DNA of 27,353 bases from NCBI GenBank assembly GCA_041674325.1, contig JBAYWA010000001.1, positions 1-27,353 on the forward strand. Reading direction: 5' to 3'. Made by a program: the position numbers and the translations under genes. Shown here one piece after another: positions 2,223-24,261 of the stretch. The notes below the pieces were generated by a model. It did no database searches. It was not told the origin of the DNA and was given only the letters and a program-made list of their open reading frames with translations. How positions within the stretch are numbered: position 1 is the first letter of the stretch; each line of letters starts with the position of its first letter. Source of the DNA: Melioribacteraceae bacterium. GTDB taxonomy: Bacteria; Bacteroidota; Ignavibacteria; Ignavibacteriales; Melioribacteraceae.

Positions 2223-3591
2223 ATCGCCTCTTCTTTTCCGGACCGGGTGGGGATTCCCAGATCATCCATTTTCCGGTAGAGTGAAGAGAGGCCTATTTCC
2301 AGCGCTTTGGCGGCCTCGTCTTTATTGTAATCAAATTTTCTGATGGTCTTCAGAATATGCTCCTTTTCAAAATCCTTTATAGCATCCTTAAGCGCGTCGG
2401 GATAGCCTTCCTGAATATTACCTCCTTTTATATGCTCGGCGAGGTCCGCAACTGTTATGGTTTCATTTGAAGCGAAGATTATCGCCCTCTCAATTACATT
2501 TTCCAATTCGCGAACACCGCCTCTCCAATCATGCGCTAAAAGTATTTTCATAGTTGCGTTATCAATACCAATTATCCTCTTACCCATCTCCTTACTGAAC
2601 TTCTCAATGAAATGGCTGACGAGGAGCGGGATGTCTTCCGACCGTTCATTTAAAGACGGGAGTTTTATCTCTATCACATTAAGCCGGTAATAAAGGTCCT
2701 CTCTGAATTCGTTGTCTTCGTCTTTTCAAACAAATCCTGATTTGTAGCCGCTATAATTCTCACATCCGTGGTGACGGATTTAATGCCTCCGACCGGAATG
2801 AACTCGCGGTCTTCTATTGCTCTAAGAAGCTTAACCTGAAGGTTAAGGGGCAGTTCCCCGATCTCATCAAGAAAAAGTGTGCCGCCGTCGGCGACTTTGA
2901 ATAGACCGGTTTTATCTTCTGTTGCTCCCGTAAACGATCCTTTCTTATGACCGAACAATTCACTCTCAATCAGATTTTCCGAGATGGCCCCGCAGTTTAT
3001 TGGCAGAAATATTTTTTCTTTTCTGCCGCTGTTTTTGTGGATAGCTTTTGCGACCAGTTCCTTTCCGGTACCGCTTTTCCCAAAAATTAAAACATTACTG
3101 TTAGTAGGGGCAACCTGAGAGATAATGTCGAAAACTTTTTTCATCGGCTGGCTCTTCCCGATAAGATTAGTAAATCCGGTATCGGAAGAGATTCTTTGTC
3201 TTAAAGATTTGTTCTCGGCTGCGAGCGTTTTATAGTCGATCAGTCTTTTTACTCTTATAATTACATCCTCAAATTCAACGGGCTTAATAAGATAATCATA
3301 AGCTCCGCAGCGCAGCGCGTCGATTGCAGTTTTTACGGAGGCAAATGCTGTCATTATGATAAAAAAAGTTTCCGGTGAAATTTTGGAGGAGGACTCGAGA
3401 AGCTGCATGCCGTCCAGTTTTGGCATTTTAATATCTGAAATCACAACATCATAAGAATTTTCCTGAATCTTTAACAAGGCCTCTTCGCCGTCTCCGGCTG
3501 TATCGGTAATGAAGCCCTCTTCGGCCAGAACCATTTTGAGGGAATCGCGGATCGGTTTCTCATCGTCGACTATAAGAATTTTTGAGGGCAT
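2219..3591 (-). pseudogene. Sigma-54-dependent response regulator (NtrC/AtoC family: receiver, AAA+, Fis HTH), interrupted by a 1-nt frameshift. This is either a pseudogene or a sequencing error.
   Basis: ORF 2674-3591 has the receiver (LIVDDE, SDIKMP), Walker A (GKSGTGKE), ESELFGH..GSFTGA and Walker B (LFLDEIGEL). The conserved NEFREDLYYRLNV continues in another frame and joins ORF 2219-2677 (IEIKLPSL, WRGGVRELENVIERA, HTH NKDEAAKALEIGLSSLYRKM). Confidence 0.85.
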
Positions 3592-6911: not shown

Positions 6912-6941
6912 CGCTGGCTCGGTAATTCGAGCCAGCGTTTT
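6912..6941 (+). terminator. Rho-independent terminator-like hairpin between the convergent DUF4139 and neuB genes
   Basis: A perfect 10-bp stem CGCTGGCTCG/CGAGCCAGCG (6912-6921, 6928-6937) with a 6-nt loop is followed by TTTT on the + strand. The flanking TTTACTC/GAGTAAA can extend the pairing. There is no U-tract on the - strand. Confidence 0.7.
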
Positions 6942-6983: not shown

Positions 6984-7877
6984 TCAGGCGGTAATATTAG
7001 GTTTGATTTTTCTGAGTTTGTCTATGCTTTGATATTCACTGCCGTAGACTTTTTTCACTCCATCTCCCAGCGCTTTTTCAAGGTCGCGAATATCCTGAAC
7101 AAGTTTTAGCATTCCGTTCACCTCAACTGAAGCGGCCTGATCGGTTCCCCACATCGCGCGGTCTAGTGTAATATGCCTCTCAACAAAGGCGGCGCCCAGT
7201 GCGACCGCGCCGAGTGTCGGGGCTAAGCCGGTTTCATGTCCGGAATAACCGATAGGCACTTCCTGGAATTTTTCTTTGTACGTTTTTATCACATTCAGAT
7301 TTAACTCCTCCAGAGCGCATGGATAATTTGAAGTAGTCTGGGCGATCATCAAATTATCTGTGCTCAAAATTTCCACAGCTTCTTCAATCTCATCTATTGC
7401 GGACATGCCCGTGGAGAGAATTACGGGTCTTCCTGTGGCTTTAATTTTTCTGAGAAGCTTGTGGTCAGTCAGACAGGCAGAAGCGATTTTATGCATAACT
7501 GGTTTGAATTTTTCCATAAAGTTCAACGCCTCTTCATCCCAGGGAGAAGCAAACCAATCAATCCCTTTCTGCCTGCAATATCCATCAATCTCCAGATATT
7601 CTTCGAATCCGAATTCAACTTTATGGCGGTATTCGAGATACGTTATTCTTCCCCAGGGAGTTTCTCTTTCGATATTCCATTGATCTTTAGGCACGCACAA
7701 TTCGGGTGTTCGCTTTTGAAATTTAACAGCGTTGCAGCCGGCGAAGACGGCTCCGTCGATCAATTTTTTCGCGAGTTCCAGCGATCCGTTATGATTTATC
7801 CCGATTTCGGCGATAATATAAACGGGTTCTCCGTCTCCGATCCATCTATTTCCGACTTTAACTTTGCTAATTTTCAT
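6984..7877 (-). CDS. neuB: NeuB-family ulosonic acid (phosphate) synthase, short form lacking the C-terminal SAF/antifreeze-like domain
   Basis: Motifs IAEIGINHNGS, AVKFQKR, FASPWD, KIASA, ILSTGMS, TSNYP, IGYSGHE and VERHITLDR..WGTDQAAS. It is 297 aa and ends right after LGDGVKKV. Confidence 0.93.
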   Translation of the reverse strand: MKISKVKVGNRWIGDGEPVYIIAEIGINHNGSLELAKKLIDGAVFAGCNAVKFQKRTPELCVPKDQWNIERETPWGRITYLEYRHKVEFGFEEYLEIDGYCRQKGIDWFASPWDEEALNFMEKFKPVMHKIASACLTDHKLLRKIKATGRPVILSTGMSAIDEIEEAVEILSTDNLMIAQTTSNYPCALEELNLNVIKTYKEKFQEVPIGYSGHETGLAPTLGAVALGAAFVERHITLDRAMWGTDQAASVEVNGMLKLVQDIRDLEKALGDGVKKVYGSEYQSIDKLRKIKPNITA

Positions 7878-8410
7878 CTGCCCCTTTTATTAATTGTTTT
7901 TGCCTCGATAATTAATTCAGCCAGATCTCTGAAGGCCCCGCAACCGCCGTTACTTTCTACAACCACATCAACGATGTTTTTGGCAAACTTTGTAGCATCA
8001 TTTGGACAAGCTGAGAGACCAACACGCTTCAATATTTCCAGATCGTTTGTATCGTCACCGATAAATGCTATCTCCCCGGCACTCAGATTTTTTCTGTTGA
8101 TAATATCCTCTAGTGTCTTTTCCTTTTCATAAACTCCCATGTGCAGTTCATCAATATTTAACTTTTGAGCTCTTGATTTGACTATCAGGGTATTCTCACG
8201 GGTAATAATTCCGGTTTCAACCCCAACAAGTTTTTTCAGGCGTTCAACACCCATCCCGTCTCTTATAGAATACCGCTTCATCAATTCACCCTTTTCGGAA
8301 TAATAAACGCCGGTGTCCGTTAGAACGCCATCGACATCCGTTAAAAGCAATTTAATTTTAGAAGCGCGCTTAAGAAGCTGGCTCCTTGTCAATTTTTTTT
8401 TCATACTCAT
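7874..8410 (-). CDS. HAD phosphatase of the KdsC/YrbI family (probably a nonulosonate-9-phosphate phosphatase)
   Basis: Motif I DVDGVLTD, DGMG, motif II IITRE, K and motif IV AFIGDDTND. Its stop overlaps the neuB start (ATGA). Confidence 0.9.
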   Translation of the reverse strand: MSMKKKLTRSQLLKRASKIKLLLTDVDGVLTDTGVYYSEKGELMKRYSIRDGMGVERLKKLVGVETGIITRENTLIVKSRAQKLNIDELHMGVYEKEKTLEDIINRKNLSAGEIAFIGDDTNDLEILKRVGLSACPNDATKFAKNIVDVVVESNGGCGAFRDLAELIIEAKTINKRGR

Positions 8411-8476: not shown

Positions 8477-9280
8477 TTACCAGCAGGTCCAGCCGCCATC
8501 GACAACAAGGTTTGCCCCGGTCATATAAATTGACGCGTCGCTGGCAAGGAAAATCAATGCTCCTCTATAATCCGAAGGATTTGCCATTCTTCCAAGCGGA
8601 GTTTTAGTCGAATATTTTTCAACGAAAAATTCATCCTGATTATTAAACACGCCGCCGGGTGTAAGAGTGTTAACGCGCACTCCATCCTTTCCCCAGTATG
8701 CAGCCAGATATTTAGTGAACATAATCACGGCCCCTTTTGTGGCGGAGTAAGCAGGCGGCTTATAAAAAGACTGTGATCCGTCCTCTTTGATATATAACGA
8801 TTGGTCCGGCGCTGTTAAACCGTATGTAGACGCTATGTTTATTATACTACCCGATCTTTGTTTTGCCATCTCAGTCCCTATAATCTGTGATGCTAAAAAA
8901 ACGCCGGTCAGATTCACATCAACAGATTTTTGCCACAATTCAAGAGGATAATTTTCAAATTTTGACTGTTCGCTTGCGGCTTTTGGATCTTCGAACATAT
9001 CATTAATTGCGGCATTGTTCACAAGGATATCAATTTGTCCGAACTTCCTGATTATTGTATCTTTTAAAATTTTGACCGATTCCGGTTTAGTCACATCAAG
9101 CGCGGCGCCGAGTGATTCTGTTGCAAGGGTTCCGGCAAAATTCACGCATCCGCTTTCGTCAATATCGGCCACTACGACATTCGCCCCTGCCTCACTTAGA
9201 GCACGGCAATGTTCCCGGCCTATCAAGCCGAGAGCTCCTGTAACGACCGCTGTTTTATTCTCCAGATTAAAAATATTCAT
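8477..9280 (-). CDS. Short-chain dehydrogenase/reductase (PtmA-like, probably NAD-preferring)
   Basis: TGALGLIG, an acidic residue after beta-2 (VADID), NNAA, INIASTYG, catalytic YSATK, VRVNTLTPGG and NLVVDGG. Confidence 0.92.
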   Translation of the reverse strand: MNIFNLENKTAVVTGALGLIGREHCRALSEAGANVVVADIDESGCVNFAGTLATESLGAALDVTKPESVKILKDTIIRKFGQIDILVNNAAINDMFEDPKAASEQSKFENYPLELWQKSVDVNLTGVFLASQIIGTEMAKQRSGSIINIASTYGLTAPDQSLYIKEDGSQSFYKPPAYSATKGAVIMFTKYLAAYWGKDGVRVNTLTPGGVFNNQDEFFVEKYSTKTPLGRMANPSDYRGALIFLASDASIYMTGANLVVDGGWTCW

Positions 9281-9293
9281 TCAGATCTCAAAT

Positions 9294-10628
9294 TTATTTT
9301 TTTACCGGTTTCATATTGAAATTATCCACTTTTCTAAACACTGGCAGCACAGGTTTTCCCAGAAGCATTTCCTTTAAATTATTTTTTTTGACCGCGTTTT
9401 TAAGGAACACAAGTGATTCTTCCAGCGCCTGGAGAGTGTAATTTACATCTGCATCGCTATGGGAAAAAGAAAGATTATGAAATCCCTGCCACAAAACGCC
9501 ACGTTTTATCATCTCCTGCTGCATCAGAGATTTCTGAATAAGGGGATCTCCCGCTTTTTCATCGAATGTAGCCATTGACCGCCAATTGTATCCGACAGCC
9601 TTCGTGTAATCCATTCCCAAATTCTGAGCTATTGTATTATATCCTTCCTTCAATTTTTTTCCCTGGTCGCTGAGATATTGAGGAACGTTTTTATCCCGCA
9701 GCTCCTCTATAGTTGCTTTCGTTGCCGCCAGAGAGAGTGCCTCGCCTCCGAACGTTGTATAAAAAAAGATATCATCATCAGCAAGATCCATAATTGATCT
9801 TTTACCTGTCAGAATAGAGATGGGCATTCCGTTGGCGACTGCTTTTGAGAAGGTTGCCAGATCCGGGGTAATTCCGAAATACTCCTGAGCCCCGCCGAGC
9901 GCCATTCTGAAACCCGTCCACATTTCATCGAATATAAGCACAATACTTTTTTCTTTACAGAGATCTGCCAGCTTATGCAGAAAATTATCTTTCGGCTCAG
10001 CAAATACAACTGGTTCCAGTATAATTGCCGCCACATCATCGTCAATCGATTTTCTTACAGAGTCGATGTCATTGTAATTAAAAGTATATGATATTGCCTG
10101 TACAGCTTCGGGTATTCCATGATTACGGGCGGTTACAGCTATGTACCAATCGTGCCATCCGTGGTAGCCGCAGCATAGAATTTTATTCTTCCCTGTATGA
10201 GCGCGTGCAAGACGGACTGCGGCACTTGTTGCATCAGCACCGGTTTTGCTGTACCGGACGGCTTCAGCATTCGGCACGACTTCCCTAATTAATTCCGCAA
10301 CTTCCACTTCAAGCGGGTGCATCATCGAAAAAGTAATTCCGTCTTTCAATTGTTCTTTTATCGCCGTGTCAATTTTGGGATAGGCATAGCCAAGTGAAAG
10401 GGGACCAACGCCCATCATGTAATCGATATATTCATTGCCGTCAACATCCCACACATGAGACCCGCTGCCCCGCACTAAATATTTGGGAGCTATCCCGTTC
10501 ACCCACTGACCGGGTCCCTTTGCAAGGGTTTGGGTGACTGATGGTATTAATCCAAGCGCGCGATTGTATAATTCGTCGGATTTAGAAATATCAGGATAAT
10601 TATTTTGAAGTGAAATTTTGTTCGGCAT
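9294..10628 (-). CDS. Class III PLP-dependent aminotransferase (glutamate-1-semialdehyde aminomutase-like), probably acting on a sugar
   Basis: VWDVDGNEYIDY..G.GPLSLG, GYHGW, ILEP, LIFDEMWTGFR and PLP-lysine TFSKAVANGMP. A GAGG RBS precedes the ATG. Confidence 0.92.
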   Translation of the reverse strand: MPNKISLQNNYPDISKSDELYNRALGLIPSVTQTLAKGPGQWVNGIAPKYLVRGSGSHVWDVDGNEYIDYMMGVGPLSLGYAYPKIDTAIKEQLKDGITFSMMHPLEVEVAELIREVVPNAEAVRYSKTGADATSAAVRLARAHTGKNKILCCGYHGWHDWYIAVTARNHGIPEAVQAISYTFNYNDIDSVRKSIDDDVAAIILEPVVFAEPKDNFLHKLADLCKEKSIVLIFDEMWTGFRMALGGAQEYFGITPDLATFSKAVANGMPISILTGKRSIMDLADDDIFFYTTFGGEALSLAATKATIEELRDKNVPQYLSDQGKKLKEGYNTIAQNLGMDYTKAVGYNWRSMATFDEKAGDPLIQKSLMQQEMIKRGVLWQGFHNLSFSHSDADVNYTLQALEESLVFLKNAVKKNNLKEMLLGKPVLPVFRKVDNFNMKPVKK

Positions 10629-10742: not shown

Positions 10743-11654
10743 CTAATCTCTAGAAGCTAATCGCTTAAAAATTTTGCCAGCAATTCTATCAGCTGTAAAT
10801 CCCTCATACTCTAAAACATCATTCAGCAAACCCGGCCTGAACCACTTGTTCATCAAAGCGAAAGGGAGAACATCCGCGGTTTTTTTGTTCCTCAGAAGCA
10901 CTTCGGCAAGTATGGAATAGAGGCCGCCGGTAACAAAATGATCTTCCAGTGTAACGATCAATCTGCATTCTTCTGCCGCTCTCAGGATTGCGGCTTCGTC
11001 CACCGGTTTCGGTGTTCTAATATTAATCAGCCGTACCGATACCCCTTTTGATTCAAGTATCTCTTTTGCCTTGAATGCCTCTCCAAATAAAAAACCGTAA
11101 ACCAGAATTGCTACATCATTCCCGCCTCCAAAAACTTCTGCTTTTCCGATCTCAAAGCTGTTATGTTCCACTAAGTTTTTTGTATTGTTATACCGGATAT
11201 AGAATGGGGAAGGGCTTGTAAAAACTGCTTTCAGGCCTTTCAGCATATCGTCCTCGTCCGCGGGGCAGAATAGATTTACGTTTGGAATTCCTCTCATGAT
11301 TGAGACATCCTCGATTGCCTGGTGTGTTGGTCCGTTGCCGTCCGATAAAAATCCCGGTACCGCCCCTACAATTTTAACCGGAAGATTGGCAATTCCCACG
11401 TCGGTACGGATAAATTCGAATGCTCGCATCGTTAAAAATGTAGCAAGGGCATGAACAATCGGCGTCCTGCCGCGTAATGCCAATCCGGCAGCCATTCCTA
11501 TCATTGTCTGTTCGGTAATGCCCGTATCTATAAAATTATTTTTGATCAGAGGGGGAAGATTTCTGAAAGCTGCCCTGTTCTCCGAAGTCATTATTATATA
11601 ACGGTCATCATTATTTATAAGATCGAGTACAATATCTGCATATGTCATTATCAT
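10743..11654 (-). CDS. Transketolase-like ThDP enzyme, C-terminal (pyrimidine-binding and C) subunit
   Basis: DTGITEQTMIGMAAGLA, GPTHQAIED, FCPAD, YIR, IGKAEV, KPVD and LEDH..TGGL. ATGA overlap with the N-terminal subunit gene. Confidence 0.92.
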   Translation of the reverse strand: MIMTYADIVLDLINNDDRYIIMTSENRAAFRNLPPLIKNNFIDTGITEQTMIGMAAGLALRGRTPIVHALATFLTMRAFEFIRTDVGIANLPVKIVGAVPGFLSDGNGPTHQAIEDVSIMRGIPNVNLFCPADEDDMLKGLKAVFTSPSPFYIRYNNTKNLVEHNSFEIGKAEVFGGGNDVAILVYGFLFGEAFKAKEILESKGVSVRLINIRTPKPVDEAAILRAAEECRLIVTLEDHFVTGGLYSILAEVLLRNKKTADVLPFALMNKWFRPGLLNDVLEYEGFTADRIAGKIFKRLASRD

Positions 11655-12508
11655 CTCGCAACAATGGTTTCTGAAGTTAACTTGGTTTTTTTTGCGCCGT
11701 GCAATTCTTTGAGGAGCTGCTCAATCTCTTCCTGCTTGAAATTTACGAACCAGCGGTCTGCCCGTTTTTCTATGCTTGGCAATCCCTTGCCTCTAACCGT
11801 CTCGGCAATTACTACGGACACCTTACCTTTTTCGAATGGAAATTTTTTGAATGTCTCCTCCATCTTCTCAAAATTATGGCCGTTTACTTTTCTGACTCTG
11901 CATCCGAAAGCTTCAAATTTTTTGTTTAGCGGTTTGAGAGGAATTAAATCTTCAGTCTGCATATTAGCCTGAAACTGATTCCTGTCAACTACTATTAGCA
12001 AATTATCAAGATGATATGCAGATGCAACAAGAAGCGCTTCCCACATTGATCCTTCGTTAAGCTCTCCGTCTCCAACCACAACTACAACTCTGTTCTTTTG
12101 TTTGCGAAGTTTGCAGTCGATAGCAACTCCCATCGCGACTGAAAGATTGTGGCCGAGCGAACCGGAATGAAATTCTATGCCGGGAATGTTTCTGTTAGGA
12201 TGCCAGTAGATGAAATCATTTGTGCTCAGATGATTTTTCAGCCTTTCTTTTTCAAGCAGACCAATTTCTACATATGTGCCGTAGAGAGCCGGTACATCGT
12301 GTCCTTTCGAGAGGAAAAAGTAGTCCCTCTTGGGATCACTGAGATTTTCTTTGGATACTTTCAGAAATTCCTTATAGAGGTAAACTATCAGATCGGCACA
12401 GGAGAGGGATGCGCCGATAAAACAGCCGCCACGCCCGCTCATTCCGATAATATGTTCTCGGACTCTTAGCGCCGTTTCCTGTAATTCGAGTAATTTTTTT
12501 TTATTCAT
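11651..12508 (-). CDS. Transketolase-like ThDP enzyme, N-terminal (diphosphate-binding) subunit
   Basis: RDYFFLSKGH, HP...PGIE..SGSLG and the ThDP motif GDGELNEGSMWEA...LDNL..VVDRN. Also FG..V..VNGH and TVRGKG. Confidence 0.92.
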   Translation of the reverse strand: MNKKKLLELQETALRVREHIIGMSGRGGCFIGASLSCADLIVYLYKEFLKVSKENLSDPKRDYFFLSKGHDVPALYGTYVEIGLLEKERLKNHLSTNDFIYWHPNRNIPGIEFHSGSLGHNLSVAMGVAIDCKLRKQKNRVVVVVGDGELNEGSMWEALLVASAYHLDNLLIVVDRNQFQANMQTEDLIPLKPLNKKFEAFGCRVRKVNGHNFEKMEETFKKFPFEKGKVSVVIAETVRGKGLPSIEKRADRWFVNFKQEEIEQLLKELHGAKKTKLTSETIVAR

Positions 12509-13308
12509 TTTAAGTTCAATTTGTTTTTGTATTCGTCAATGTGATTAAGTTCATTAAGATGATTTTCGTACCAGTATTTACCTAGATATTTTCTGTTGAT
12601 TGAGGCAATTTCCGGTTTTCGTACAAGTAAATCTAATATATCGTTAAGACTAAAAGTAGGATTCCCGGGATAAAGTTCTTCATAAATATTTTTTATTAGC
12701 CGGTAATCCTCCTCATAATCGATTGTCCACCGATGGGAGGCTGAAAAATCCTTACCTGCCTCCCATCCTATATTTGCAACTCTGAATTTACCGGGATTTT
12801 CCCAGAAGTATGGGGTGGTGTGTTCGCGTTCAAAAGTCTTCCCGGCTTCTTTCCATGCGGTTATAAGTGCTTTAAAAGAAAAAATTTCAACATCGTTGCC
12901 GTCCGGATAGCTTGCCGGATGAAGGTTGCTGACATAATCGAATTTATCATTACTTTTAATAAAGAACGATAATACTTTGTCGATTATTCCCGGGTCAATC
13001 AGCGGGCAGTCGGAAGGAATTTTCACTACCGCATCTGCGCCGTACTTTTTGCCCGCCTCATAATGCCTGTCAAGAAGATCCGCCAGATTTCCCCTGAAGC
13101 ATTCAATCTTTTCCCTTTTGCACAATTCAGCCACCGGATCATCGTCTTTATACAGAGAAGTAGCAACAACAATCATTCCGGCTAATTTAGAAAAGGAGAC
13201 ACGTTCTGTCATCCGGAGTAGAAGAGGTTTACCCAGAATAGGCAGCATTATTTTTCCCGGTAATCTGGTAGATGACATTCTCGCCTGTATGACTGTAACA
13301 ATCTTCAT
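12505..13308 (-). CDS. SpsF-type acylneuraminate/ulosonate cytidylyltransferase (NTP_transf_3 family)
   Basis: IQARMSSTRLPGK, PSDCPLIDP, YPDGNDVE, REHTTPY and RWTIDYEED. ATGA overlaps on both sides. Confidence 0.88.
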   Translation of the reverse strand: MKIVTVIQARMSSTRLPGKIMLPILGKPLLLRMTERVSFSKLAGMIVVATSLYKDDDPVAELCKREKIECFRGNLADLLDRHYEAGKKYGADAVVKIPSDCPLIDPGIIDKVLSFFIKSNDKFDYVSNLHPASYPDGNDVEIFSFKALITAWKEAGKTFEREHTTPYFWENPGKFRVANIGWEAGKDFSASHRWTIDYEEDYRLIKNIYEELYPGNPTFSLNDILDLLVRKPEIASINRKYLGKYWYENHLNELNHIDEYKNKLNLK

Positions 13309-14312
13309 TTATAATCGAATTTTTTATGAATTTCGTCTAATGCTGCGTCAGGAAAATCAATTAAATATTTTCCCAGGCGAGCAATCCTTTCCGCGGATGA
13401 TCCGTTATTCTGGATAGGCTGCAGTTTTTTAAGTTGTTCGATATCGTAATATGAATGGACTTCTTTTCCCAGCGCCAGTCCGATATAAACCGTTGAAGAA
13501 AATTTTGTGATCAGGAGATCGCAGTTCGCGATCATATGATTGGTATTCCCTGTCGAAAAAACCAGAGCGCCCGGCGCTATCTCGCTAATCTCTTTTGAGG
13601 CGCGCTCAACGTTCTCATTTGGGTGCAATTTAAAGATAAGCTGCCTTCCCTTTGCGATATTCACACACTCTCTGATGAATTTTTTCCGGTTTTCGATTTT
13701 GTAGGTCTCTCTCGCATCCGAAGTGCAGACAAGAGCAAAATTTTTATGCGGAAAGTCATTATTCAGAAATTGTACGGCATTATCAAAATTCGGAATTCCT
13801 GTTACAATTATTTTTTCGGCTTTGGCCCCTTTGCGGATGAAAAAATCTTTGTAGCCGTAAGAAGCAACGCAGAACAACGTATATAAGTCGGACATCCCCA
13901 TTGTTGATGTGCTCGCCAGCCACCGGTAGAGTTTGAGATATTTAACCAGATAGAACATTAAATTTTCCGGATCGGTCATTCCCTCCTGAACCAGGATTAC
14001 TTTTTTGCCGCGTATATTTTTCGGCACAATCAGGTCCGCGCAGGTATAAACCAGGTCGTAATTATATTTTTCGCCCCGGTAATCCATCTCCAGACCGTTA
14101 TTTGACAGATATTCTTCAGTTTTCCAACGGAACGGCCCGTTCAGAATCGAAAATTTTCCGTACCCTCTACTCACTCCGTAATTGATCCAGCCGTCGCCGT
14201 AATAGGGAGTGAATAAACAATCGAATTCATTCAAATGCAGGGATATCTGATGCATCATGGAAGTCTGATTGAGCGAACCGCAAATAAAAAGAATTTTTTT
14301 CTTTGTCATCAA
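13305..14312 (-). CDS. Putative GT-B fold CMP-ulosonate glycosyltransferase (hypothetical protein)
   Basis: VQEG (109-111), IIVTGIPNFD, FKLHP (227-231) and ITKFSSTV..GLALGK (SST 272-274) resemble GT-B sialyltransferase and TagF-like motifs. It is the first gene of the coupled operon. Confidence 0.6.
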   Translation of the reverse strand: MMTKKKILFICGSLNQTSMMHQISLHLNEFDCLFTPYYGDGWINYGVSRGYGKFSILNGPFRWKTEEYLSNNGLEMDYRGEKYNYDLVYTCADLIVPKNIRGKKVILVQEGMTDPENLMFYLVKYLKLYRWLASTSTMGMSDLYTLFCVASYGYKDFFIRKGAKAEKIIVTGIPNFDNAVQFLNNDFPHKNFALVCTSDARETYKIENRKKFIRECVNIAKGRQLIFKLHPNENVERASKEISEIAPGALVFSTGNTNHMIANCDLLITKFSSTVYIGLALGKEVHSYYDIEQLKKLQPIQNNGSSAERIARLGKYLIDFPDAALDEIHKKFDYK

Positions 14313-14437: not shown

Positions 14438-15514
14438 ATGAATAACTTAGATCCCCGGCTGATGGTATATGGGGCAAACGGATATTCCGCGCAGCTGATA
14501 ATAGAGGAACTTATCGCAAGAAAGATCAATCCGGTCCTTGCCGGGCGGAATAAAGAAGAGGTAAGTTCGCTGGCTCAAAAATATAATTTGGAGTTTAAAA
14601 TATTTGACCTATCCGACGAGAAAGAAATCTTAGTATCGCTGGAAGGAATTCATACATTAATAAATTGCGCCGGCCCCTTTAAGTACACGGCTAAAGAACT
14701 AATGGAGGCCTGTCTGCAATCAAAAACGAATTATCTGGATATTACCGGGGAAATGCCGGTGATGCATCTGGCGTTTTCGATGATAGATAATGCCAGGGAG
14801 AAGGGTGTTGTAATTATGCCGGGTGTCGGGTTTGATATAATACCTACTGATTGTCTGGCAAAAAGATTAAGCGAAAGAATGCCTGATGCGGATAATCTTA
14901 AACTGGGTTTTTTAAATAAACGCGGAAAAATTTCAAGGGGTACGATGATTACAACTCTTGAATTTTTGGGCGGAACCGGGAAAATAAGACGCAATGGAAG
15001 AGTGATTGATTCAAAAATAGGCGAATTCAGAGTCAAATTTAAGAGGGGAAACTTTTCATTTAAAGGTATATCTATACCTTGGGGAGATGTCTACTCCTCG
15101 TATCACTCAACCGGAATAAAAAACGCTGAGGTGTATCTTGCCTTGCCGGGAGTGATAATTAAACTCCGTACAATTCTGCTTTTTGCTTTACGGTTATTAA
15201 AGATAGATTCGGTCAAAAATATTGTGAAGAATTACATCGGTAAAAATCTGACGGGGCCGGCAAAAGGGGAGCGTGATTCTGCCGAAACTTATATTTGGGG
15301 GCGTGTGGAATCGAAAGATGGAAGAAAAATCGAGGAGATCTACAGGGTGATGGAAGGTTATACACTTACTGCCAAGGGCGCCGCGGAATGTTCTGAGAGG
15401 GTATTGAATAATGAAGTATGTCCCGGCACATATACACCGTCTCTTGCTTTCGGAAGCGGATTTCTCGAACATTTTATAATCGAAAAAATTTATTCATCGG
15501 CCGGGGATATCTGA
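14438..15514 (+). CDS. Saccharopine dehydrogenase-like NAD(P)-binding oxidoreductase
   Basis: Rossmann motif VYGANGYSA, LAGRN, NCAGPF, YLDITGE, GVGFDIIPTD and SRGT..T. Confidence 0.85.
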   Translation: MNNLDPRLMVYGANGYSAQLIIEELIARKINPVLAGRNKEEVSSLAQKYNLEFKIFDLSDEKEILVSLEGIHTLINCAGPFKYTAKELMEACLQSKTNYLDITGEMPVMHLAFSMIDNAREKGVVIMPGVGFDIIPTDCLAKRLSERMPDADNLKLGFLNKRGKISRGTMITTLEFLGGTGKIRRNGRVIDSKIGEFRVKFKRGNFSFKGISIPWGDVYSSYHSTGIKNAEVYLALPGVIIKLRTILLFALRLLKIDSVKNIVKNYIGKNLTGPAKGERDSAETYIWGRVESKDGRKIEEIYRVMEGYTLTAKGAAECSERVLNNEVCPGTYTPSLAFGSGFLEHFIIEKIYSSAGDI

Positions 15515-16923: not shown

Positions 16924-17325
16924 ATGTTTACCACCAAAGTTAAAGTCTATTTCTACGACGCGGACCCCGCCGGAATTATTTTCTACGCCAGTTTATTCAA
17001 ATTTGTTCACGCGGCGTATGAAGATTTTATGAGAGGATTGCATACCGAGCGGGATTATTTTTTCGATAAAGATTATATACTGCCGATAATTCACGCGGAG
17101 GCCGATTACGTAAGGCCGATTAAGGTCGGCGATGAATTGAGAGTTGATGTAGTCGTGAGTCTGCTGAAAAATTCTTCTTTTGAATTAAGTTATAAATTTT
17201 ACAAATCGGACGGACAGTTTACAGCAATCGCCAAAACGGTTCATGTTTGTGTGCAGAAAGATCAGTTCAAGAAAATTGAACTGCCGAAGGAATTTCTGGA
17301 AAAGATGAAGCTTAATCTAAATTGA
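16924..17325 (+). CDS. Hot-dog fold acyl-CoA thioesterase (4HBT class), probable DHNA-CoA hydrolase (MenI function)
   Basis: The ATG at 16924 follows an AAGGAG RBS. It has YFYDADPAGIIFY, HAEADY..P...GD.L.V and SSF.LSY. Its 3' end overlaps menE by 14 bp. Confidence 0.8.
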   Translation: MFTTKVKVYFYDADPAGIIFYASLFKFVHAAYEDFMRGLHTERDYFFDKDYILPIIHAEADYVRPIKVGDELRVDVVVSLLKNSSFELSYKFYKSDGQFTAIAKTVHVCVQKDQFKKIELPKEFLEKMKLNLN

Positions 17326-18808
17326 GCTCTTTGAGAAGTGCAGGACGGATTATTTTACCCATCTCATTTCTTGGCAGAATGGCGAGTTGAAAAATTCGTT
17401 TTGGTATTTTATATCCGGCGAGTTTTGTTTTTAAAAATTTTTTCAGATCATTCTCTTTAATATCAGCACATTCAACAGCCGCACAGACAATCTGACCCCA
17501 ATTTGAATCTTCTAAAGAAAAAACATAAACATCGCTGACTCCCGGGAATGTACTGATCGCGTTTTCGACTTCGGCACAGCTGACATTCTCGCCCCCGGTA
17601 ATTATAAGATCCTCACGTCTCGATTCAACGAACAGGTATCCATTATTATCAATTCTGCCTAAATCCCCGGTATGATACCATCCGTTTATAATTTTTCCGG
17701 CTGTAGCCTCAAAATCCTTGTAATATTCTTTGAACAAAGAATCCGAAGCGATATAAATTTCTCCCGACTCCGGCACCATCGAATTGGCCTCATCATTTTC
17801 AGGCAGACTGTGCTGAATCATAATTCTGTTCTGCCCCAAGGGCTTTCCTGATGAGGAGATGTAATTTCTGAAAGATGTTGCCGGCAGGGCGGTAACCATT
17901 GAACAAGTTTCAGTTGAGCCGTATACTTTTACAACCGGCCATCCTCTGTCAATTGCATCCAGATAGAGTTGTTCTTCCGACGGTCCTCCGCCCAGAAATA
18001 AAAATCTTAAATTTGAAGCCGGAGAGAAATTATTCTTTAATAAACGGTGAAGCATTGTTGGAACTAATGAGATGCACGTCGGACGAAATTGCCTAATCCC
18101 GGCAACGATATTCTCATATCTTAACCCGGAAGGGAACACAAGCGCGGAGCCGGAGATTAGTGAACGGATCAAAATCATAAATCCGCCGATATGAAAGAGA
18201 GGGAGGGAAGAGAACCAAATATCATCATCCGATAGCATCGCGAAAGAATCGGTTGCTTTAACGCTCTGATAGAGACTTCGGAATGTATGAACAACAGCCT
18301 TGGGATCGCCGGTGCTTCCTGATGTGAACATTATCAAAGAAGGATCAAGAGGAGAATAATCTGCTGACCTTAGCACATTATGCTTTTCCGGATTCGTAAC
18401 TATATGATCTTTTGTCTCCCGGAATGGAAAGTGAATTTTATCGGGAAAACTCAATTCTGAATATTGCGCCGCTGTTTTTTCATCAAAAATGAGAAATTTG
18501 ATCTCAACTTTGTTTATCTGCTTTTCAAGTTCGGCCGGCAGAAGTTGCGTGCTTATCGGAACAGGAACCGCCCCAATAATCCAGAGAGCATTTATGATAG
18601 TTAAAAAATTATAGTTGTGACTGAATAAAACAGCAATCCGGTCGCCCTTACAAATTCCATTGTCAATCATAAATTCAGCGGCGGCAAAACATTCATCCGC
18701 CAATTCCCCGTAAGTGATAATCCTATCTTCCAGAATCACCGCGTTTTTACCCGGCTGCTTTTCAGATTGTTCAATAATCCAATGCTTTGTACTTCCCGCG
18801 GATATCAT
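17312..18808 (-). CDS. menE: o-succinylbenzoate-CoA ligase
   Basis: Adenylate-forming motifs FTSGSTGDPKAV, LPLFHIGG, YGSTE, YHTGDLG, RREDLIITGGENV, AGYKIPK and NEMGKI. It is the last gene of the men operon. Confidence 0.9.
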   Translation of the reverse strand: MISAGSTKHWIIEQSEKQPGKNAVILEDRIITYGELADECFAAAEFMIDNGICKGDRIAVLFSHNYNFLTIINALWIIGAVPVPISTQLLPAELEKQINKVEIKFLIFDEKTAAQYSELSFPDKIHFPFRETKDHIVTNPEKHNVLRSADYSPLDPSLIMFTSGSTGDPKAVVHTFRSLYQSVKATDSFAMLSDDDIWFSSLPLFHIGGFMILIRSLISGSALVFPSGLRYENIVAGIRQFRPTCISLVPTMLHRLLKNNFSPASNLRFLFLGGGPSEEQLYLDAIDRGWPVVKVYGSTETCSMVTALPATSFRNYISSSGKPLGQNRIMIQHSLPENDEANSMVPESGEIYIASDSLFKEYYKDFEATAGKIINGWYHTGDLGRIDNNGYLFVESRREDLIITGGENVSCAEVENAISTFPGVSDVYVFSLEDSNWGQIVCAAVECADIKENDLKKFLKTKLAGYKIPKRIFQLAILPRNEMGKIIRPALLKELNLD

Positions 18809-19872
18809 AAGAGCTTCAGATCAAAAAAATTAGGATATGTCTCCGGATTAAAATCGATTCTCCCGTTTTTTATTACATACGGATCGGGGAATAGACTGTT
18901 CTTAAAATAATCCGAAGTATCGAGGCCATGGGGAAGGGAATGGTTAACTGAAGCAGCCAGAAACACTAAAGCGTTTTTTCCTACCGGACTTTCAAACGAT
19001 GAGGAGATAATAATTTTCTTTTTTTTCTTCTCCGCTTCTTTGATAAGTTTCAATGAGGAGAGGATTCCGCCCAGAATCATCGGTTTAAGGATAAGAAATT
19101 CAACATTGCAGTGATTTATCAGGTCTTCAGCTCTTTCAAATGAAACAAGCGATTCATCAAGTGCGATAGGTACGGGTGAATCTTCAATCAAATGGAAATT
19201 GCTGCACACAAATTCGCACGGTTCCTCAACGTAGTCGATATTAAATTGCTGGAAACGGTCAAGGTATTCCAACGCTTCATCAGCGCTCCATGCCCGGTTC
19301 GCATCCAGTCTCAAATTAATATTACCCCCGAATTCATTACGTATCTCCTTTAGGAGGAGAAAATCATCTAAAACATCATTCCGGCCTATTTTAATTTTAA
19401 ACGTGGTGAATCCATCACGAATCTTCCTCCTGATTTTATTCAGCACAAAATCCTTGCTGCCGATTCCTACAACAGCATTTGAAGGGACGGATAAATTAAA
19501 TTCATCAAAATAATCAGATAATATTTTTCTGTTCCGGAGGATTAACAGATTTACCAATGCCTGCTCAAAAGCGAATCGGAGTGACGGGGTAAGATTGTGT
19601 CTTACTGTAAAAACCTGGACCGATTCGAAATTATCGTCAATCTTTTCTCCCGGAATACGGGTCTGTAAACTTTCCAATAGTTGCTTCGAATCATCAAGAG
19701 ACTCACTGCTGAATCCGGGCAATGGCGAGCATTCTCCGGAAGCGCGGTTATTAAACTCGTCTCTCAATTCTATTATAAATCCGCTACGTTGACTTATTGT
19801 TTTTGTTGAAGTATGAAATGGAGATTGCAGATCGAGAGAAAAATAAATGTATTTAAATTCTGATATTGTCAT
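18805..19872 (-). CDS. menC: o-succinylbenzoate synthase (enolase superfamily)
   Basis: GECSPLPGFS.E, the KxK motif FKIKIG, metal ligands LDAN..W, VEEP and ALDES, LKP, and HGL.T. Confidence 0.9.
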   Translation of the reverse strand: MTISEFKYIYFSLDLQSPFHTSTKTISQRSGFIIELRDEFNNRASGECSPLPGFSSESLDDSKQLLESLQTRIPGEKIDDNFESVQVFTVRHNLTPSLRFAFEQALVNLLILRNRKILSDYFDEFNLSVPSNAVVGIGSKDFVLNKIRRKIRDGFTTFKIKIGRNDVLDDFLLLKEIRNEFGGNINLRLDANRAWSADEALEYLDRFQQFNIDYVEEPCEFVCSNFHLIEDSPVPIALDESLVSFERAEDLINHCNVEFLILKPMILGGILSSLKLIKEAEKKKKKIIISSSFESPVGKNALVFLAASVNHSLPHGLDTSDYFKNSLFPDPYVIKNGRIDFNPETYPNFFDLKLL

Positions 19873-20786
19873 AATAGAATTCCGGCTGCGAAAAGCAATC
19901 CATAGAGGGCTGATAGCTTGGCCGTAAGTTCCAGAGTCTTATTTAATTCGCTGCCCCTCTTTGTATAGATCATTCTGATCAACTTTACCGCGAGGGGTAA
20001 ACTCAGAAGGGGAAGAAAGACAAAAATTTCTTTTTTAAATGTAAAGTAAACTATAAAGAGTATAGAATAAGAAATCAGCATGAAAAAGAGGTACTGAAAT
20101 CGTCCGAACTTTTCCCCGAAAATCACAATAAGTGTTCTCTTTCCGTTTGAACTGTCCTCTTCCCGGTCCCGGTAATTATTGACTACCAGAATGTTTGTTA
20201 TTAATGCGCCCACCGGCACGGAAGCCCAGAATGCCATGGCGCTGAACTCATTTGCCTGCACATAGTAAGTGCCCACAGTTCCTACAAAACCGAAGAAAAG
20301 AAATACCGCAATATCTCCCAATCCGTTATAGGCCAATGGAAACGGACCTGCCGTGTATGCGATCCCGGCCAGAATTGAGAGAATTCCAATAATCAGTATG
20401 AACCAGCCGCTGTGAATTATCAGATACAAACCGAGGAGGAAACTTAAACCGAATGAAAAATATATTCCGAACTTCATCTCGTTGACAGACAGGAGTCCCG
20501 AGACAGTTGCTCTCTGGGGACCAACGCGGTCAGCTTTATCGGAACCGCGGAGGAAATCGAAAAGATCATTAACAAAATTAGTTCCGATTTGAATAAGCAG
20601 CGAACATAGAAGGGCAATTAAAGCCGCCAATGCATTAAATTTAAAATCATTAATCGCAATTGCAGATCCCACTACAACCGGAACAATTGCGGCTGCAAGA
20701 GTTCTTGGCCGGCTTGCCAGAATCCAGGCATTAGTTTTTGAGGTTAAATTATTCAGGGATTGAGCCATTCTTTGTCTTGTTTTCAA
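19869..20786 (-). CDS. menA: 1,4-dihydroxy-2-naphthoate polyprenyltransferase
   Basis: W..ASRPRTL, NFVNDLFD..RGSD...R.GP, YT.GP..LAY.GLGD and NNYRD..ED...GKRTL, with multiple transmembrane helices. An alternative start at MAQSL is possible. Confidence 0.93.
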   Translation of the reverse strand: MKTRQRMAQSLNNLTSKTNAWILASRPRTLAAAIVPVVVGSAIAINDFKFNALAALIALLCSLLIQIGTNFVNDLFDFLRGSDKADRVGPQRATVSGLLSVNEMKFGIYFSFGLSFLLGLYLIIHSGWFILIIGILSILAGIAYTAGPFPLAYNGLGDIAVFLFFGFVGTVGTYYVQANEFSAMAFWASVPVGALITNILVVNNYRDREEDSSNGKRTLIVIFGEKFGRFQYLFFMLISYSILFIVYFTFKKEIFVFLPLLSLPLAVKLIRMIYTKRGSELNKTLELTAKLSALYGLLFAAGILL

Positions 20787-20851
20787 TTCGATTAATCGGT
20801 TAATAAAGTGAGCAGCGAAGCATTCAGAGTGAATACTTCATATCTTTTTGA

Positions 20852-21685
20852 TTACGGCACCCTTGGAAATTTTTTGAAGTCCGGTTTCCGTTTTTCATTG
20901 TAGGCATTTTTGCCTTCCTGCGCCTCCTCGCTCATATAATAGAGCAATGTAGCGTTGCCGGATAGCTCCTGGATTCCGGCCTGTCCGTCCAATTCAGCGT
21001 TGAAAGCTGATTTGAGTAACCGGAGAGCCAGAGGACTCATTTCTAGAATTTCTCTTGCCCATTGAATACCTTCCGCCTCCAGTTGGTCGATTGGAACAAC
21101 CTTATTCACGAGTCCCATATCAAGCGCTTCCTTAGCATTATACTGACGGCAGAGAAACCATATCTCCCGGGCTTTTTTCTGTCCTACGATGCGTGCAAGG
21201 TAGCTGGCGCCGAATCCTCCGTCGAAACTGCCCACTTTGGGTCCGGTCTGTCCGAAGACAGCGTTATCCGCCGCAATCGACAGGTCGCAGACCACATGAA
21301 GTACATGCCCGCCTCCTATGGCATAACCAGCAACAAGCGCAATAACCGGCTTCGGGATGGAACGGATCTGCTTTTGAACATCGAGTATGTTCAGCCGTGG
21401 TACACCGTCTTTTCCGATATAACCTTTGTTCCCGCGAATCGATTGGTCGCCCCCGGAACAAAAAGCATATTTCCCGTCCTTAGATGGTCCTTTTCCTGTT
21501 AACAGAATTACTCCGATAGATGAATCTTCCCGCGCGTCAGCAAAAGCGTCAAAAAGTTCCAATGTTGTTTCCGGCCTGAACGCATTTCTCTTTTCGGGGC
21601 GGTTTATAGAAATCTTTGCAATACCATCCATCTTTTCGTAAATGATATCTTTATATTCTTTTGCGCTCTTCCAATCTAAACTCAT
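20852..21685 (-). CDS. menB: 1,4-dihydroxy-2-naphthoyl-CoA synthase
   Basis: [47 protein letters not shown] and EEAQEG..A..EKR.PDF. Confidence 0.97.
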
Positions 21686-21692
21686 TATTACC

Positions 21693-22511
21693 TTAAATAT
21701 TTTTCAGGAATTCATTTACTAATTTAGTAAAAACCTCAGGCTTTTCTAAGTGTACGTTATGCCCGCAATCCGAGACTGAATTATGCCTGGCGTCGGGTAA
21801 TTTTAATCTCATTTTTGTATTGATTGAAGTGTATTTTTTATCGTAATCTCCGGTAATGAGAAGTACGGGAAAGTTAAGCGATACTATCTTATCCCAGTAG
21901 CTCGTCATTAATCCGGTGCTGAAACTCATCAGTGAATTAGAGAGGCCCGTGACGCTATTTGCAATTCTTTTGCTTCTTACCTCTTTAAAGTTCGGAAGTT
22001 TTTTTAATGAATTAAATAATGGGGTATCAAACCAGAAATTAATAAATGATTCAACTCCCTCTTTCTTGATCTTTTCCGCAAAGAGATAATCTATCTCCAC
22101 TCTCTCTTTTTTCATGCAGATATCCTCGATTCCGGGAGTTGTGCTTTCAAGAACGGCGGCAATAATTCTGTCGGTGTGCTTAAGACTGTAAGAGAGTGCC
22201 ACGCGGCCTCCCATCGAATATCCGACCAGAATTACCTTCTCAAAATTCAGTTGAGAGAAAATAGAATCAAGGTGGCGGACAATTGCCGAGCAGGTATAAT
22301 GCATCTGATCTTTTGGAGAGTCTGTTGAGCCGTGTCCTATAAGATCGACAGCGACGGGGAAATATTTTTCCGGAAGCTGATCAACGATGAACTGCCAGTC
22401 CCCGGCATCCCCTGTAAAACCATGCAGAAAGATAACCGGGATTTTAGATTGTTCAAAGCTGGATTCATTTAAGAGAAGATTGAACTCGATATCTTCAACT
22501 TTTAATTTCAT
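21693..22511 (-). CDS. menH: SHCHC synthase (alpha/beta hydrolase fold)
   Basis: [28 protein letters not shown] and GHNVHLE. It sits between menD and menB. Confidence 0.9.
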
Positions 22512-24261
22512 TAATAAATCTTACAATTCGTTTTGCAACGGCGTTCCAGTAAATCTGACGCTGAAGTTTGGATTTTTTTGCGTCGGTCTGTATCTCAAGG
22601 ATGGTAAGGTTTCTATTCCTGGCAGACAATATCACTTTTTCTTTCAAATTAATCCAGCTTTTTATTCTATAATAGTCTCCGCCATAAGCTTTTACCAGTT
22701 TTTCAAAATTTAAGTCAACCGGCGTAGAGAAATTATTTTTGAAGACGTCTTTATATTCGGAGATCGGGAGTGATTCAAAAATGCCCCCTCCGCAATTATT
22801 AACCAGAATTATTGTTAGAGGAATCCCGTATTTTACTGCGTTGTGCAGACCGTTCAGATCGTGATAAAATGCCAAATCTCCGATAACCAGAAAGCTCCTC
22901 TCTTTTGACTTTGCGGCAATACCGAGTGCGGTAGAGTTAATTCCGTCTATTCCGCTGGCCCCTCTGTTTGTGTATACACTTAATTTCTTCTCAATCGGAG
23001 AGGCGAAGAAGTCGGCATCCCTTACCGGGAGCGAGTTGGAAATAATCAGATTTGACCCTGAAGGAACGGAATTTATTATCTCATTTAGAATCCTCCCTTC
23101 AAAAGGGAATTTCGAATTTAGGACTAATTTATTTTTAAGCTCTTCGGCAAAATTATTCATCACATGAAAATCGATCATCCAGCAGCTGTCTCTGTTTTTT
23201 CTCTCTTTTACCGCATCGAAAGATGCGTCGCAGAACAGTATCGGGTCTGCCTTAATTACTGTCTTTGCCGTAAGGGAAGGATCGTTTCTGTCTCCAAATT
23301 CATTTACTAAAATTTTTTCTGCTCTGGATCTTTTAAAGAATTCGAGCAAAGTGCTGGATGTAGGAGCTCCACCGAACTGAATTATCAATTCAGGATCGAA
23401 ATTTCTCTGAAAATCATCATTTCGGACGAGAGCCGTCAGATTGCCGGCAAAATTTTTCTTTGAGTGGCCGCCAAACCTGAGTGACGATGCACCGTCCGCA
23501 AAAATTGGATATCCGAATTTTTCCGAAAAGCGAACTAATTTTTTCGCGAAATCTTTTCCGTAATTACCGTAACCGACAATTATTAATCCTTTCTCCCAAT
23601 TCAGGAATTTTCCGGTGAGAGATTTATAGTCAATCTTAATTTGCGGGGCGGGTTTAATCTCAAACGATGAGCGGGTAAACACTCTTTCTATCTCCCCAAT
23701 CTCGATTTTATCCGTATAACTATTGGGTTCGAACGGTTTTTCGAAAGGCATATTGACATGAACCGGACCTCTCTCTGCGACACACGAAAAATGTATAGAG
23801 TCTTCGGCAATTTTTTTAATTGAAGTAAGCCTGCTTATATCGGGCAATCCGGCATCAACAAAATACCGGATATGATTCCTGTAGATATTATTCTGATTTA
23901 TTGTCTGGTTAGCCCCATTGTTTCTCATTTGATGCGGCCTGTCCGCAGTACAAATTATCAGCGGCACCCTGGAGTAATATGCTTCTATTATTGCCGGATA
24001 CAATTCCGCAACCGCGGTCCCTGATGTTGTAACAACCGCTACGGGGGAATTTGATTTCTTAGCGAGTCCGAGCGCAAAGAATGCCGAGGAGCGTTCGTCG
24101 ACTATGGGGAAGACATCGATCGACTTATTCGAAATGAATGCGAGAGTCAGTGATGTGCTTCTTGAACCCGGAGAGATGCAGGCATATCGTACGCCAAGCT
24201 GCGCCAGGCGGCTTACAAAAAGATCGCACCACACAATATTACGATTTATAGACAGTTTCAT
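22495..24261 (-). CDS. menD: SEPHCHC synthase (ThDP-dependent)
   Basis: The likely ATG is at 24261 (the track starts at TTG 24267). Motifs CISPGSRST, DERSSAFFALG, TTSGTA, TADRP, ANQTI.Q, GPVH.N, NSLPVRD, NRGASGIDG, GDLAFYHDLNG and NN.GGGIF. Confidence 0.96.
   Translation of the reverse strand: MKLSINRNIVWCDLFVSRLAQLGVRYACISPGSRSTSLTLAFISNKSIDVFPIVDERSSAFFALGLAKKSNSPVAVVTTSGTAVAELYPAIIEAYYSRVPLIICTADRPHQMRNNGANQTINQNNIYRNHIRYFVDAGLPDISRLTSIKKIAEDSIHFSCVAERGPVHVNMPFEKPFEPNSYTDKIEIGEIERVFTRSSFEIKPAPQIKIDYKSLTGKFLNWEKGLIIVGYGNYGKDFAKKLVRFSEKFGYPIFADGASSLRFGGHSKKNFAGNLTALVRNDDFQRNFDPELIIQFGGAPTSSTLLEFFKRSRAEKILVNEFGDRNDPSLTAKTVIKADPILFCDASFDAVKERKNRDSCWMIDFHVMNNFAEELKNKLVLNSKFPFEGRILNEIINSVPSGSNLIISNSLPVRDADFFASPIEKKLSVYTNRGASGIDGINSTALGIAAKSKERSFLVIGDLAFYHDLNGLHNAVKYGIPLTIILVNNCGGGIFESLPISEYKDVFKNNFSTPVDLNFEKLVKAYGGDYYRIKSWINLKEKVILSARNRNLTILEIQTDAKKSKLQRQIYWNAVAKRIVRFINEIKS

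Follow-up and report, generated by a model that had tools for sequence, protein, structure and literature searches.

An unclassified TagF-like GT-B protein at the head of a bacterial ulosonate cassette is a candidate transferase of sugar acids to membrane lipids

The window examined here, a stretch of 27,353 nucleotides from a Melioribacteraceae bacterium (assembly GCA_041674325.1, contig JBAYWA010000001.1, positions 1 to 27,353), carries a gene for a protein of the GT-B type, which we call the transferase, at the head of an eight-gene ulosonate cassette that occurs in several phyla. The operon, read on the minus strand, is made up as follows.

13305..14312, minus strand: GT-B transferase gene, 335 codons from a TTG start; first gene of the operon
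12505..13308, minus strand: KdsB/NeuA-type cytidylyltransferase (CTP_transf_3), whose ATG start overlaps the transferase stop (ATGA)
10743..12508, minus strand: split transketolase-like pair, which the cassette of other lineages may lack
8477..10628, minus strand: class III aminotransferase and short-chain dehydrogenase/reductase (SDR), presumed to form a hydroxyl-to-amine pair
6984..8410, minus strand: KDN-9-P-phosphatase-like HAD enzyme and NeuB-family synthase, with which the operon closes
6912..6937: G+C-rich hairpin in the gap where neuB and a DUF4139 gene converge

The shared ATGA indicates that the transferase is translationally coupled to the cytidylyltransferase, and at the other end the operon likely stops at the hairpin. 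The phosphatase scores 157.6 bits with NF058599 and the synthase 257 bits with PF03102. The second codon of the transferase reading frame is ATG, and the database copy (P0002) is 334 amino acids long; the true start is probably this ATG at 14309, so that the residue numbers used throughout, which are counted from TTG in the 335-codon version, would be one too high.

The transferase is a single-copy gene in all 20 genomes of the same genus (69-78% identity), and its family reaches far beyond that genus. Homologues form 6293 clusters at 90% identity, with 466 representatives at 50% identity, and members from at least ten phyla are about 50-60% identical; they include Ignavibacteriota, Chlorobiaceae and their relatives, Bacteroidota, Acidobacteriota, Myxococcota, Desulfobacterota, Planctomycetota, NC10 and others. 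The gene was found in 101 of 301 genomes sampled from the phylum of the window, among them 55 of the 63 genomes of one family, f20. Because all five f20 genomes tested carry the FMO bacteriochlorophyll protein, we take this family to be the green sulfur bacteria.

An earlier note on this DNA had read the protein as a candidate new glycosyltransferase family acting on a sugar acid activated with cytidine monophosphate (CMP), on the strength of three motifs shared by the bacterial sialyltransferases of families GT38, GT52 and GT80, namely D/E-D/E-G, HP and S-S/T. These motifs and two further segments lie at the following positions.

13980..13988, minus strand: QEG (Q109-E110-G111), where a strand of the N-domain ends
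13782..13802, minus strand: TGIPNFD (residues 171-177), inter-domain segment
13620..13634, minus strand: FKLHP (K-x-H-P; residues 227-231), with an HP that is unique within the protein
13491..13499, minus strand: S272-S273(-T274) within LITKFSS, the S-S/T motif, resembling the D-Y-S-S of TagF-type enzymes
13380..13418, minus strand: P-x-Q-N-x-G-x-S-A-x-x-I-A (residues 299-311), a family-specific C-terminal motif

QEG, FKLHP and SST are all present in that order, and an ordered triad of this kind ([DEQ][DE]G, HP 80-180 residues on and S[ST] 25-70 residues further) arises in 0.2% of 20,000 shuffles of the transferase sequence. Conservation was counted over 46 full-length representatives of clusters at ≤50% identity, and with one exception the motifs are kept across the family: Q109 in 44, E110 in 40 and G111 in 39 of the 46, K228 in 34, H230 in 33 and P231 in 42, and S272 and S/T273 in 32 each. 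The exception is T274, kept in only five, which marks the final T of SST as incidental. Comparable counts hold for the inter-domain segment (T171 43, G172 45, P174 44, D177 43) and for the C-terminal motif (P299 40, Q301 39, A307 38, I310 39, A311 39). TGIPNFD follows strand 168-170 and separates the two Rossmann-like halves of the structural model, which bears out its placement at the domain junction, and in weak hidden Markov model matches it is aligned with the TG.P..D segment of 2-epimerases. As for the likeness to sialyltransferases, the HP motif (H230-P231) and the S-S/T motif downstream of it (S272-S273) are those of GT38, GT52 and GT80, but the first motif is QEG instead of D/E-D/E-G, its leading position being an almost invariant Gln.

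The AlphaFold2 model of the transferase, built from a 26-sequence alignment, has a predicted local distance difference test score (pLDDT) of 89.1, a predicted template-modelling score (pTM) of 0.87, and the two Rossmann-like domains with an inter-domain cleft that define the GT-B superfamily. Foldseek returned more than 465 matches in the Protein Data Bank (PDB) at E ≤0.001, with GT-B proteins throughout among the matches listed. In VIA-align comparisons the highest scores were to UDP-GlcNAc 2-epimerases and NeuC (Z 16-17.8; for 1V4V, 3OT5 and 5ZLR, Z 17.5-17.8 over ~280 residues at 15-16% identity), followed by TagF/TarL (14.8-15.4), PglA (15.1), MurG (13.7), the polysialyltransferase 5WC6 (13.3, with 257 residues aligned), MGD1 (13.2), PimA (12.9) and the Kdo transferase WaaA (12.8); GT38, GT52 and GT80 enzymes came below the epimerases, TagF and ordinary GT-B enzymes. 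Because Z falls smoothly from 17.8 to about 12, with identities of 11-18% throughout, the fold confirms the GT-B assignment of the earlier note without separating one donor class from another. The nearest structures (Z 17.8 and ~15) belong to the 2-epimerases and TagF, the two groups with which a confident kinship would, by the note, have spoken against its reading; their margin over ordinary GT-B transferases is just 2-3 Z units.

Sequence comparisons uphold the unclassified status of the protein in Pfam and NCBIfam, where all curated models fall short of their cut-offs. TIGR04396 (surface carbohydrate biosynthesis protein) scores 36.1 bits against a cut-off of 125 (E 4e-9), with residues 213-309 aligned to positions 214-309 of its 427-position model; NF046086 (BFO_1060 family glycosyltransferase) scores 25.2 bits against 200 (E 8e-6, residues 208-274); PF02350 (Epimerase_2) scores 16.4 bits against a gathering threshold of 30.6 (E 0.004, residues 145-253); and PF04464 (Glyphos_transf, the TagF/TagB family) scores 12.6 bits against 22.1 (E 0.064, residues 219-276). 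FKLHP falls within the matches to PF04464, TIGR04396 and NF046086. Many homologues carry a precomputed PF04464 match, which places the family at the edge of that model, and some are named 'CDP-glycerol glycerophosphotransferase family' in their source. The sole PDB sequence match found by phmmer is the TagF-like polymerase Cps3D (8QOY; E 0.015), in an alignment that spans LITKFSS and the region beyond; a profile search with the family alignment found no significant match among PDB sequences (best E 0.12), and the PDB sequence searches matched no sialyltransferase at E ≤10. Together, the sub-threshold signals from TIGR04396, NF046086, PF04464 and Cps3D would point to enzymes with a CMP leaving group.

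Transferases of the TagF/TagB type (3L7I TagF, 8VA1 TarL, 8QOY Cps3D) share with the protein a GT-B-like two-domain fold and a K-x-H-P followed by an aromatic residue and S-S in the C-domain, and their CMP leaving group and membrane-anchored acceptor resemble the role proposed below. They differ in that the transferase stands among genes for CMP-ulosonate rather than CDP-glycerol or CDP-ribitol synthesis and consists of one short chain that lacks polymerase extensions. The Tannerella forsythia proteins Tanf_01245 and TFUB4_00887 of the BFO_1060 family, genetically implicated as pseudaminic and legionaminic acid transferases, have TagB-like domains with D/E-D/E-G and HP motifs (PMC5420450). They too are encoded beside CMP-nonulosonate synthesis genes; unlike the window protein, they are 442-445 amino acids long and act on a protein O-glycan (N-acetylmannosaminuronic acid acceptor), and their family, NF046086, matches the transferase over residues 208-274 only. 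With the GT38, GT52 and GT80 sialyltransferases the transferase shares the GT-B fold, the order of HP and S-S/T and an N-domain acidic residue followed by Gly, but its first motif is Q-E-G and there is no detectable sequence similarity; membership in these families is not established. In our view the protein belongs to an unclassified GT-B family that is TagF-like and whose members would act as lipid-directed CMP-ulosonate transferases.

The case for a function rests chiefly on the gene neighbourhoods of the family. The order seen in the window (transferase, cytidylyltransferase, transketolase pair, aminotransferase, SDR, phosphatase, NeuB) is also found in other families of Ignavibacteriales and in Bacteroidota, Acidobacteriota and Myxococcota, in some cases without the transketolase pair. 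A Syntrophobacteraceae locus combines the transferase with a CTP_transf_3 cytidylyltransferase, a DegT aminotransferase, an SDR, NeuB and an MsbA-like ABC exporter. In four Chlorobiaceae genomes of three genera (L116:6297-11556, L117, L118 and L119), a flippase-like LPG_synthase_TM gene precedes the transferase, a CTP_transf_3 cytidylyltransferase, an iron-dependent alcohol dehydrogenase and a DegT aminotransferase, and an AMP-ligase is encoded divergently. The closest solved relative of this DegT enzyme is KdnA (5K8B; E 1.6e-75, the next being 1e-46), the transaminase for the amino-ulosonate Kdo8N, and the alcohol dehydrogenase matches the Kdo 8-oxidase KdnB weakly (E 1e-14). The green sulfur operon looks like a Kdo8N-type amino-ulosonate pathway aimed at lipid. 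In Shewanella oneidensis, where KdnA and KdnB (5K8C) oxidize and transaminate an alcohol of the ulosonate before CMP activation, Kdo8N goes to the core of lipopolysaccharide (LPS) through WaaA and not through this transferase family; the window differs from the Shewanella pathway in pairing an SDR with a class III aminotransferase. The green sulfur genomes have orthologues of the cassette phosphatase (47-50% identity) and NeuB (60-67% identity) elsewhere in the genome, and no class III aminotransferase orthologue was found in them. Thus, in three non-orthologous cassette versions the transferase has both a cytidylyltransferase and an oxidoreductase/aminotransferase pair as neighbours, and this repeated joining to partners of changing ancestry is the strongest argument that the donor is a CMP-activated amino-ulosonate.

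A second set of neighbours concerns lipids. We gathered 80 loci with a fused homologue, P0124, as query, a sample biased towards the relatives of that protein. A flippase-like domain is fused to the transferase or encoded directly upstream in 19 of them, in addition to the four separately fetched Chlorobiaceae loci with the gene directly upstream; in several long homologues this LPG_synthase_TM domain is N-terminal, and other single homologues are fused to an FA_desaturase domain or to a class III aminotransferase fragment. Another context, seen in 35 of the 80, has sphingolipid-type genes near the transferase and no ulosonate genes. These clusters typically contain a polyketide synthase, a phosphopantetheinyl transferase, an ABC-2 exporter, an LtaS-like membrane protein of the sulfatase family, a radical SAM/SPASM enzyme, a fusion of AMP-ligase, acyl carrier protein and aminotransferase whose best NCBIfam match is serine palmitoyltransferase (Spt), a KdsR-like reductase, a GNAT-type bCerS-like acyltransferase and a CerR-like reductase. 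Such superclusters (for example L027:2386-14948, L040:11-11790 and L042:47-17841) are common to Desulfobacterota, Phycisphaerae, NC10 and others, and their transferases group in a single clade that lies within the cassette-linked sequences. Spt, bCerS and CerR have roles in bacterial ceramide synthesis (PMC11087976). In the genome of the window an Spt-like gene adjoins a bCerS-like gene on contig C363 (L096/L097), and a genome of the same genus has a CerR-like/Spt-like/bCerS-like triad with the CerR-like gene divergent (L158:7160-10650). Both Spt-like and bCerS-like genes are present in nine of nine green sulfur genomes. A bCerS-like gene was found in 40 of 41 relatives, which suggests that making ceramide is a core trait of the window's order.

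We therefore read the transferase as an enzyme that moves a CMP-activated (amino)ulosonate to a membrane lipid, an interpretation on which our confidence stands at about the midpoint between doubt and acceptance. The catalytic roles and topology that we infer are as follows. The transferase, for which transmembrane and amphipathic-helix scans gave no transmembrane segment and no membrane anchor, would be a soluble or peripheral cytoplasmic GT-B enzyme, and its C-domain would bind the activated sugar acid supplied by the seven downstream genes through K-x-H-P, which presumably contacts the nucleotide phosphate, and S-S, in the manner of bacterial sialyltransferases and enzymes of the TagF type. 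With E110 of Q-E-G as the candidate catalytic base, the sugar acid would be placed on a hydroxyl of a membrane lipid with release of CMP, and the product would then be carried outward by a flippase or exporter of the kind fused or adjacent to the transferase in other lineages. WaaA (GT30; 2XCI) and KpsS/KpsC (GT107) offer a parallel, as these enzymes transfer a CMP-activated 3-deoxy-2-ulosonate to a lipid at the cytoplasmic face before export; their acceptors are lipid A precursors or lyso-phosphatidylglycerol, and we detected no sequence relationship. Given the flippase-domain fusions and the sphingolipid clusters, the acceptor is probably a membrane lipid rather than the LPS or glycoprotein that the earlier note had considered, and, since adjacent Spt-like and bCerS-like genes are present, ceramide is its likely form in the window's organism. 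The note's overall interpretation is thus sustained in part, by the fold, the motifs and the pairing with a cytidylyltransferase, and finds no support in the strict first motif or the nearest structures.

Several observations weigh against transfer of the cassette product to a lipid. The best structural matches are UDP-GlcNAc 2-epimerases and NeuC rather than sialyltransferases, the strict D/E-D/E-G pattern is absent, with only the second acidic residue and the Gly matching, and H230 is substituted in 13 of the 46 representatives. In the sphingolipid-cluster clade, NeuB, a cytidylyltransferase of the cassette type and an orthologue of the aminotransferase are all missing from five genomes, of which two are whole chromosomes, so the donor there must differ and the cassette product was rejected as a universal donor; CMP-Kdo is a possible donor in that clade, a KdsB-type match being strong in four of the five genomes and weak in the fifth. 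Conversely, the full cassette is present in family f19 (five genomes) and in genome G195, of which f19 yielded no Spt-like gene (best 32-36% identity in four genomes, none in the fifth) and neither has a bCerS-like gene at E 1e-40, Spt not having been searched in G195. These cassette genomes led us to reject ceramide as a universal acceptor. Moreover, because a bCerS-like gene is nearly ubiquitous (279 of the 301 genomes in the phylum sample), its co-occurrence with the transferase carries no weight. Finally, no flippase-like partner was found in the genome of the window or in its order; a PF03706 match on contig C348 proved unrelated to the partner type.

Some of these points would fit a glycosyltransferase that uses the same donor to cap a glycan at the cell surface, be it LPS core, O-antigen, capsule or protein O-glycan. 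The operon logic would be unchanged, the nearest named family by sequence is that of the Tannerella O-glycan transferases for pseudaminic and legionaminic acids (PMC5420450), no lipid gene lies beside the operon, the order lacks the flippase-like partner, and f19 has the cassette with no detectable Spt or bCerS. However, the contexts examined hold no other genes of glycan assembly (Wzx/Wzy, GT2/GT4, polymerases) beside the transferase, what recurs next to it instead are flippase-like domains, lipid exporters and sphingolipid genes, and identities of ~50-60% across more than eight phyla are unusual for a strain-variable surface-glycan enzyme. Surface capping is therefore unlikely, though still plausible for the window's own organism. 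We consider it improbable that the protein is an NDP-hexose (for example UDP-sugar) lipid glycosyltransferase of the MurG, MGD1 or PimA kind, with the ulosonate added otherwise or never. Such an activity would explain the clusters and genomes that lack NeuB or a dedicated cytidylyltransferase without invoking CMP-Kdo, and MurG, MGD1 and PimA match the model at Z ~13-14, and its best structural matches bind UDP. It would, on the other hand, leave three ulosonate cassettes without a transferase, in each of which this gene is the sole transferase-like one; in the window the gene is also translationally coupled to the cytidylyltransferase, and the F/Y-S-S that follows K-x-H-P fits CMP-releasing enzymes of the TagF type and not the G-rich or E-x7-E signatures that typify UDP-dependent GT-B families.

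The TagF/TagB likeness could also be taken at face value, the protein then being a phosphotransferase with a CDP-activated donor, whose phospho-alcohol or phospho-acid would pass to a lipid and form a phosphodiester head group. The sub-threshold PF04464 match, the Cps3D alignment, the PF04464 matches and names of homologues and the Z of 14.8-15.4 to TagF/TarL all agree with this, but the adjoining cytidylyltransferases are without exception CTP_transf_3 (KdsB/NeuA/PseF-like), a type that makes CMP-ulosonates and not CDP-alcohols; NeuB-family synthases stand alongside, and no TagD/IspD/LicC-type enzyme was seen nearby. The precedent of Caulobacter, whose sphingolipid head groups are built from CDP-glycerate (PMC12275187), speaks for a phosphotransferase, which we nevertheless judge to have only a slim chance. 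An analogy with Caulobacter CpgA was dropped, as PMC11324152 gives that step to a CDP-alcohol-type transferase. Least probable of all, and in our view very much so, is a NeuC/PseG-like nucleotide-sugar hydrolase or 2-epimerase that provides the aldose for NeuB. Here the Z of 16-17.8 to 2-epimerases and NeuC, the sub-threshold PF02350 match (residues 145-253) and the resemblance of V-Q-E-G and TG.P..D to the H-V-E-A-G and TG segments of epimerases, which also share the H-P segment, are set against a PF02350 score of 16.4 for a cut-off of 30.6, replacement of the epimerase nucleotide motif D-S-G-G-x-Q-E-E by F-S-S and fusions to flippase-like and desaturase-like membrane domains. In addition, the KDN-9-P-type phosphatase of the cassette implies a sugar-phosphate route in which NeuC is not needed, and the family is present in genomes without any NeuB, on which ground we rejected a NeuC-like role.

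Returning to lipid-directed CMP-ulosonate transfer, a more specific proposal, which we put forward tentatively and hold to be rather less probable, is that the family comprises the head-group transferases of ganglioside-like bacterial lipids, in which an amino-ulosonic acid is glycosidically linked to ceramide. The Chlorobiaceae orthologue might then make the aminoglycosphingolipid of Chlorobium limicola, and the window enzyme a related lipid from an amino-Kdn-type sugar. Chlorobium is known to make sphingolipids, and PMC11762602 cites by title a 'novel aminoglycosphingolipid' of Chlorobium limicola (Jensen et al. 1991; see also PMC10626005). Our literature search found no paper that assigns genes to this lipid and none that describes this transferase family. 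The sugar of the Chlorobium lipid has reportedly been described as neuraminic acid; our literature search found no text that names it. The transferase offers a gene candidate, testable by a single-gene knockout, for a green sulfur sphingolipid that has been an orphan for 35 years. More broadly, if lipid-directed transfer is correct, thousands of unannotated proteins would gain a function, the purpose of an unstudied NeuB/transketolase/aminotransferase cassette would be explained, and a widespread bacterial route to outer-membrane lipids capped by sialic-acid-like sugars would link nonulosonic-acid and sphingolipid biology in bacteria.

Several other genes were noted in and around these loci. 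In the window, a saccharopine-dehydrogenase-like NADP-binding protein (14438-15514, plus strand) is divergent from the transferase; it is kept in two genomes of the same genus and lies outside the cassette elsewhere. Near the green sulfur operon, ~1.1 kb downstream and separated from it by an intervening gene, an 804-amino-acid TIR, NB-ARC and TPR protein (L116:2734-5148, minus strand) looks like a defence or signalling NTPase. A menaquinone-type run on the minus strand of the window (17312-25606), unrelated to the transferase, encodes a chorismate-binding enzyme, a MenD-like thiamine pyrophosphate enzyme, an alpha/beta hydrolase, a member of the enoyl-CoA hydratase family, a MenA-like prenyltransferase, a MenC-like enzyme and a MenE-like ligase, the last of which weakly cross-matched the AMP-ligases of the lipid clusters. 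At 2219-3591 (minus strand), an NtrC-type sigma-54 activator appears to be split into two open reading frames with a 4-base overlap, one (2674-3591) with REC and most of AAA+ and the other (2219-2677) with the AAA lid and HTH_8, which is probably the result of a frameshift or an assembly error.

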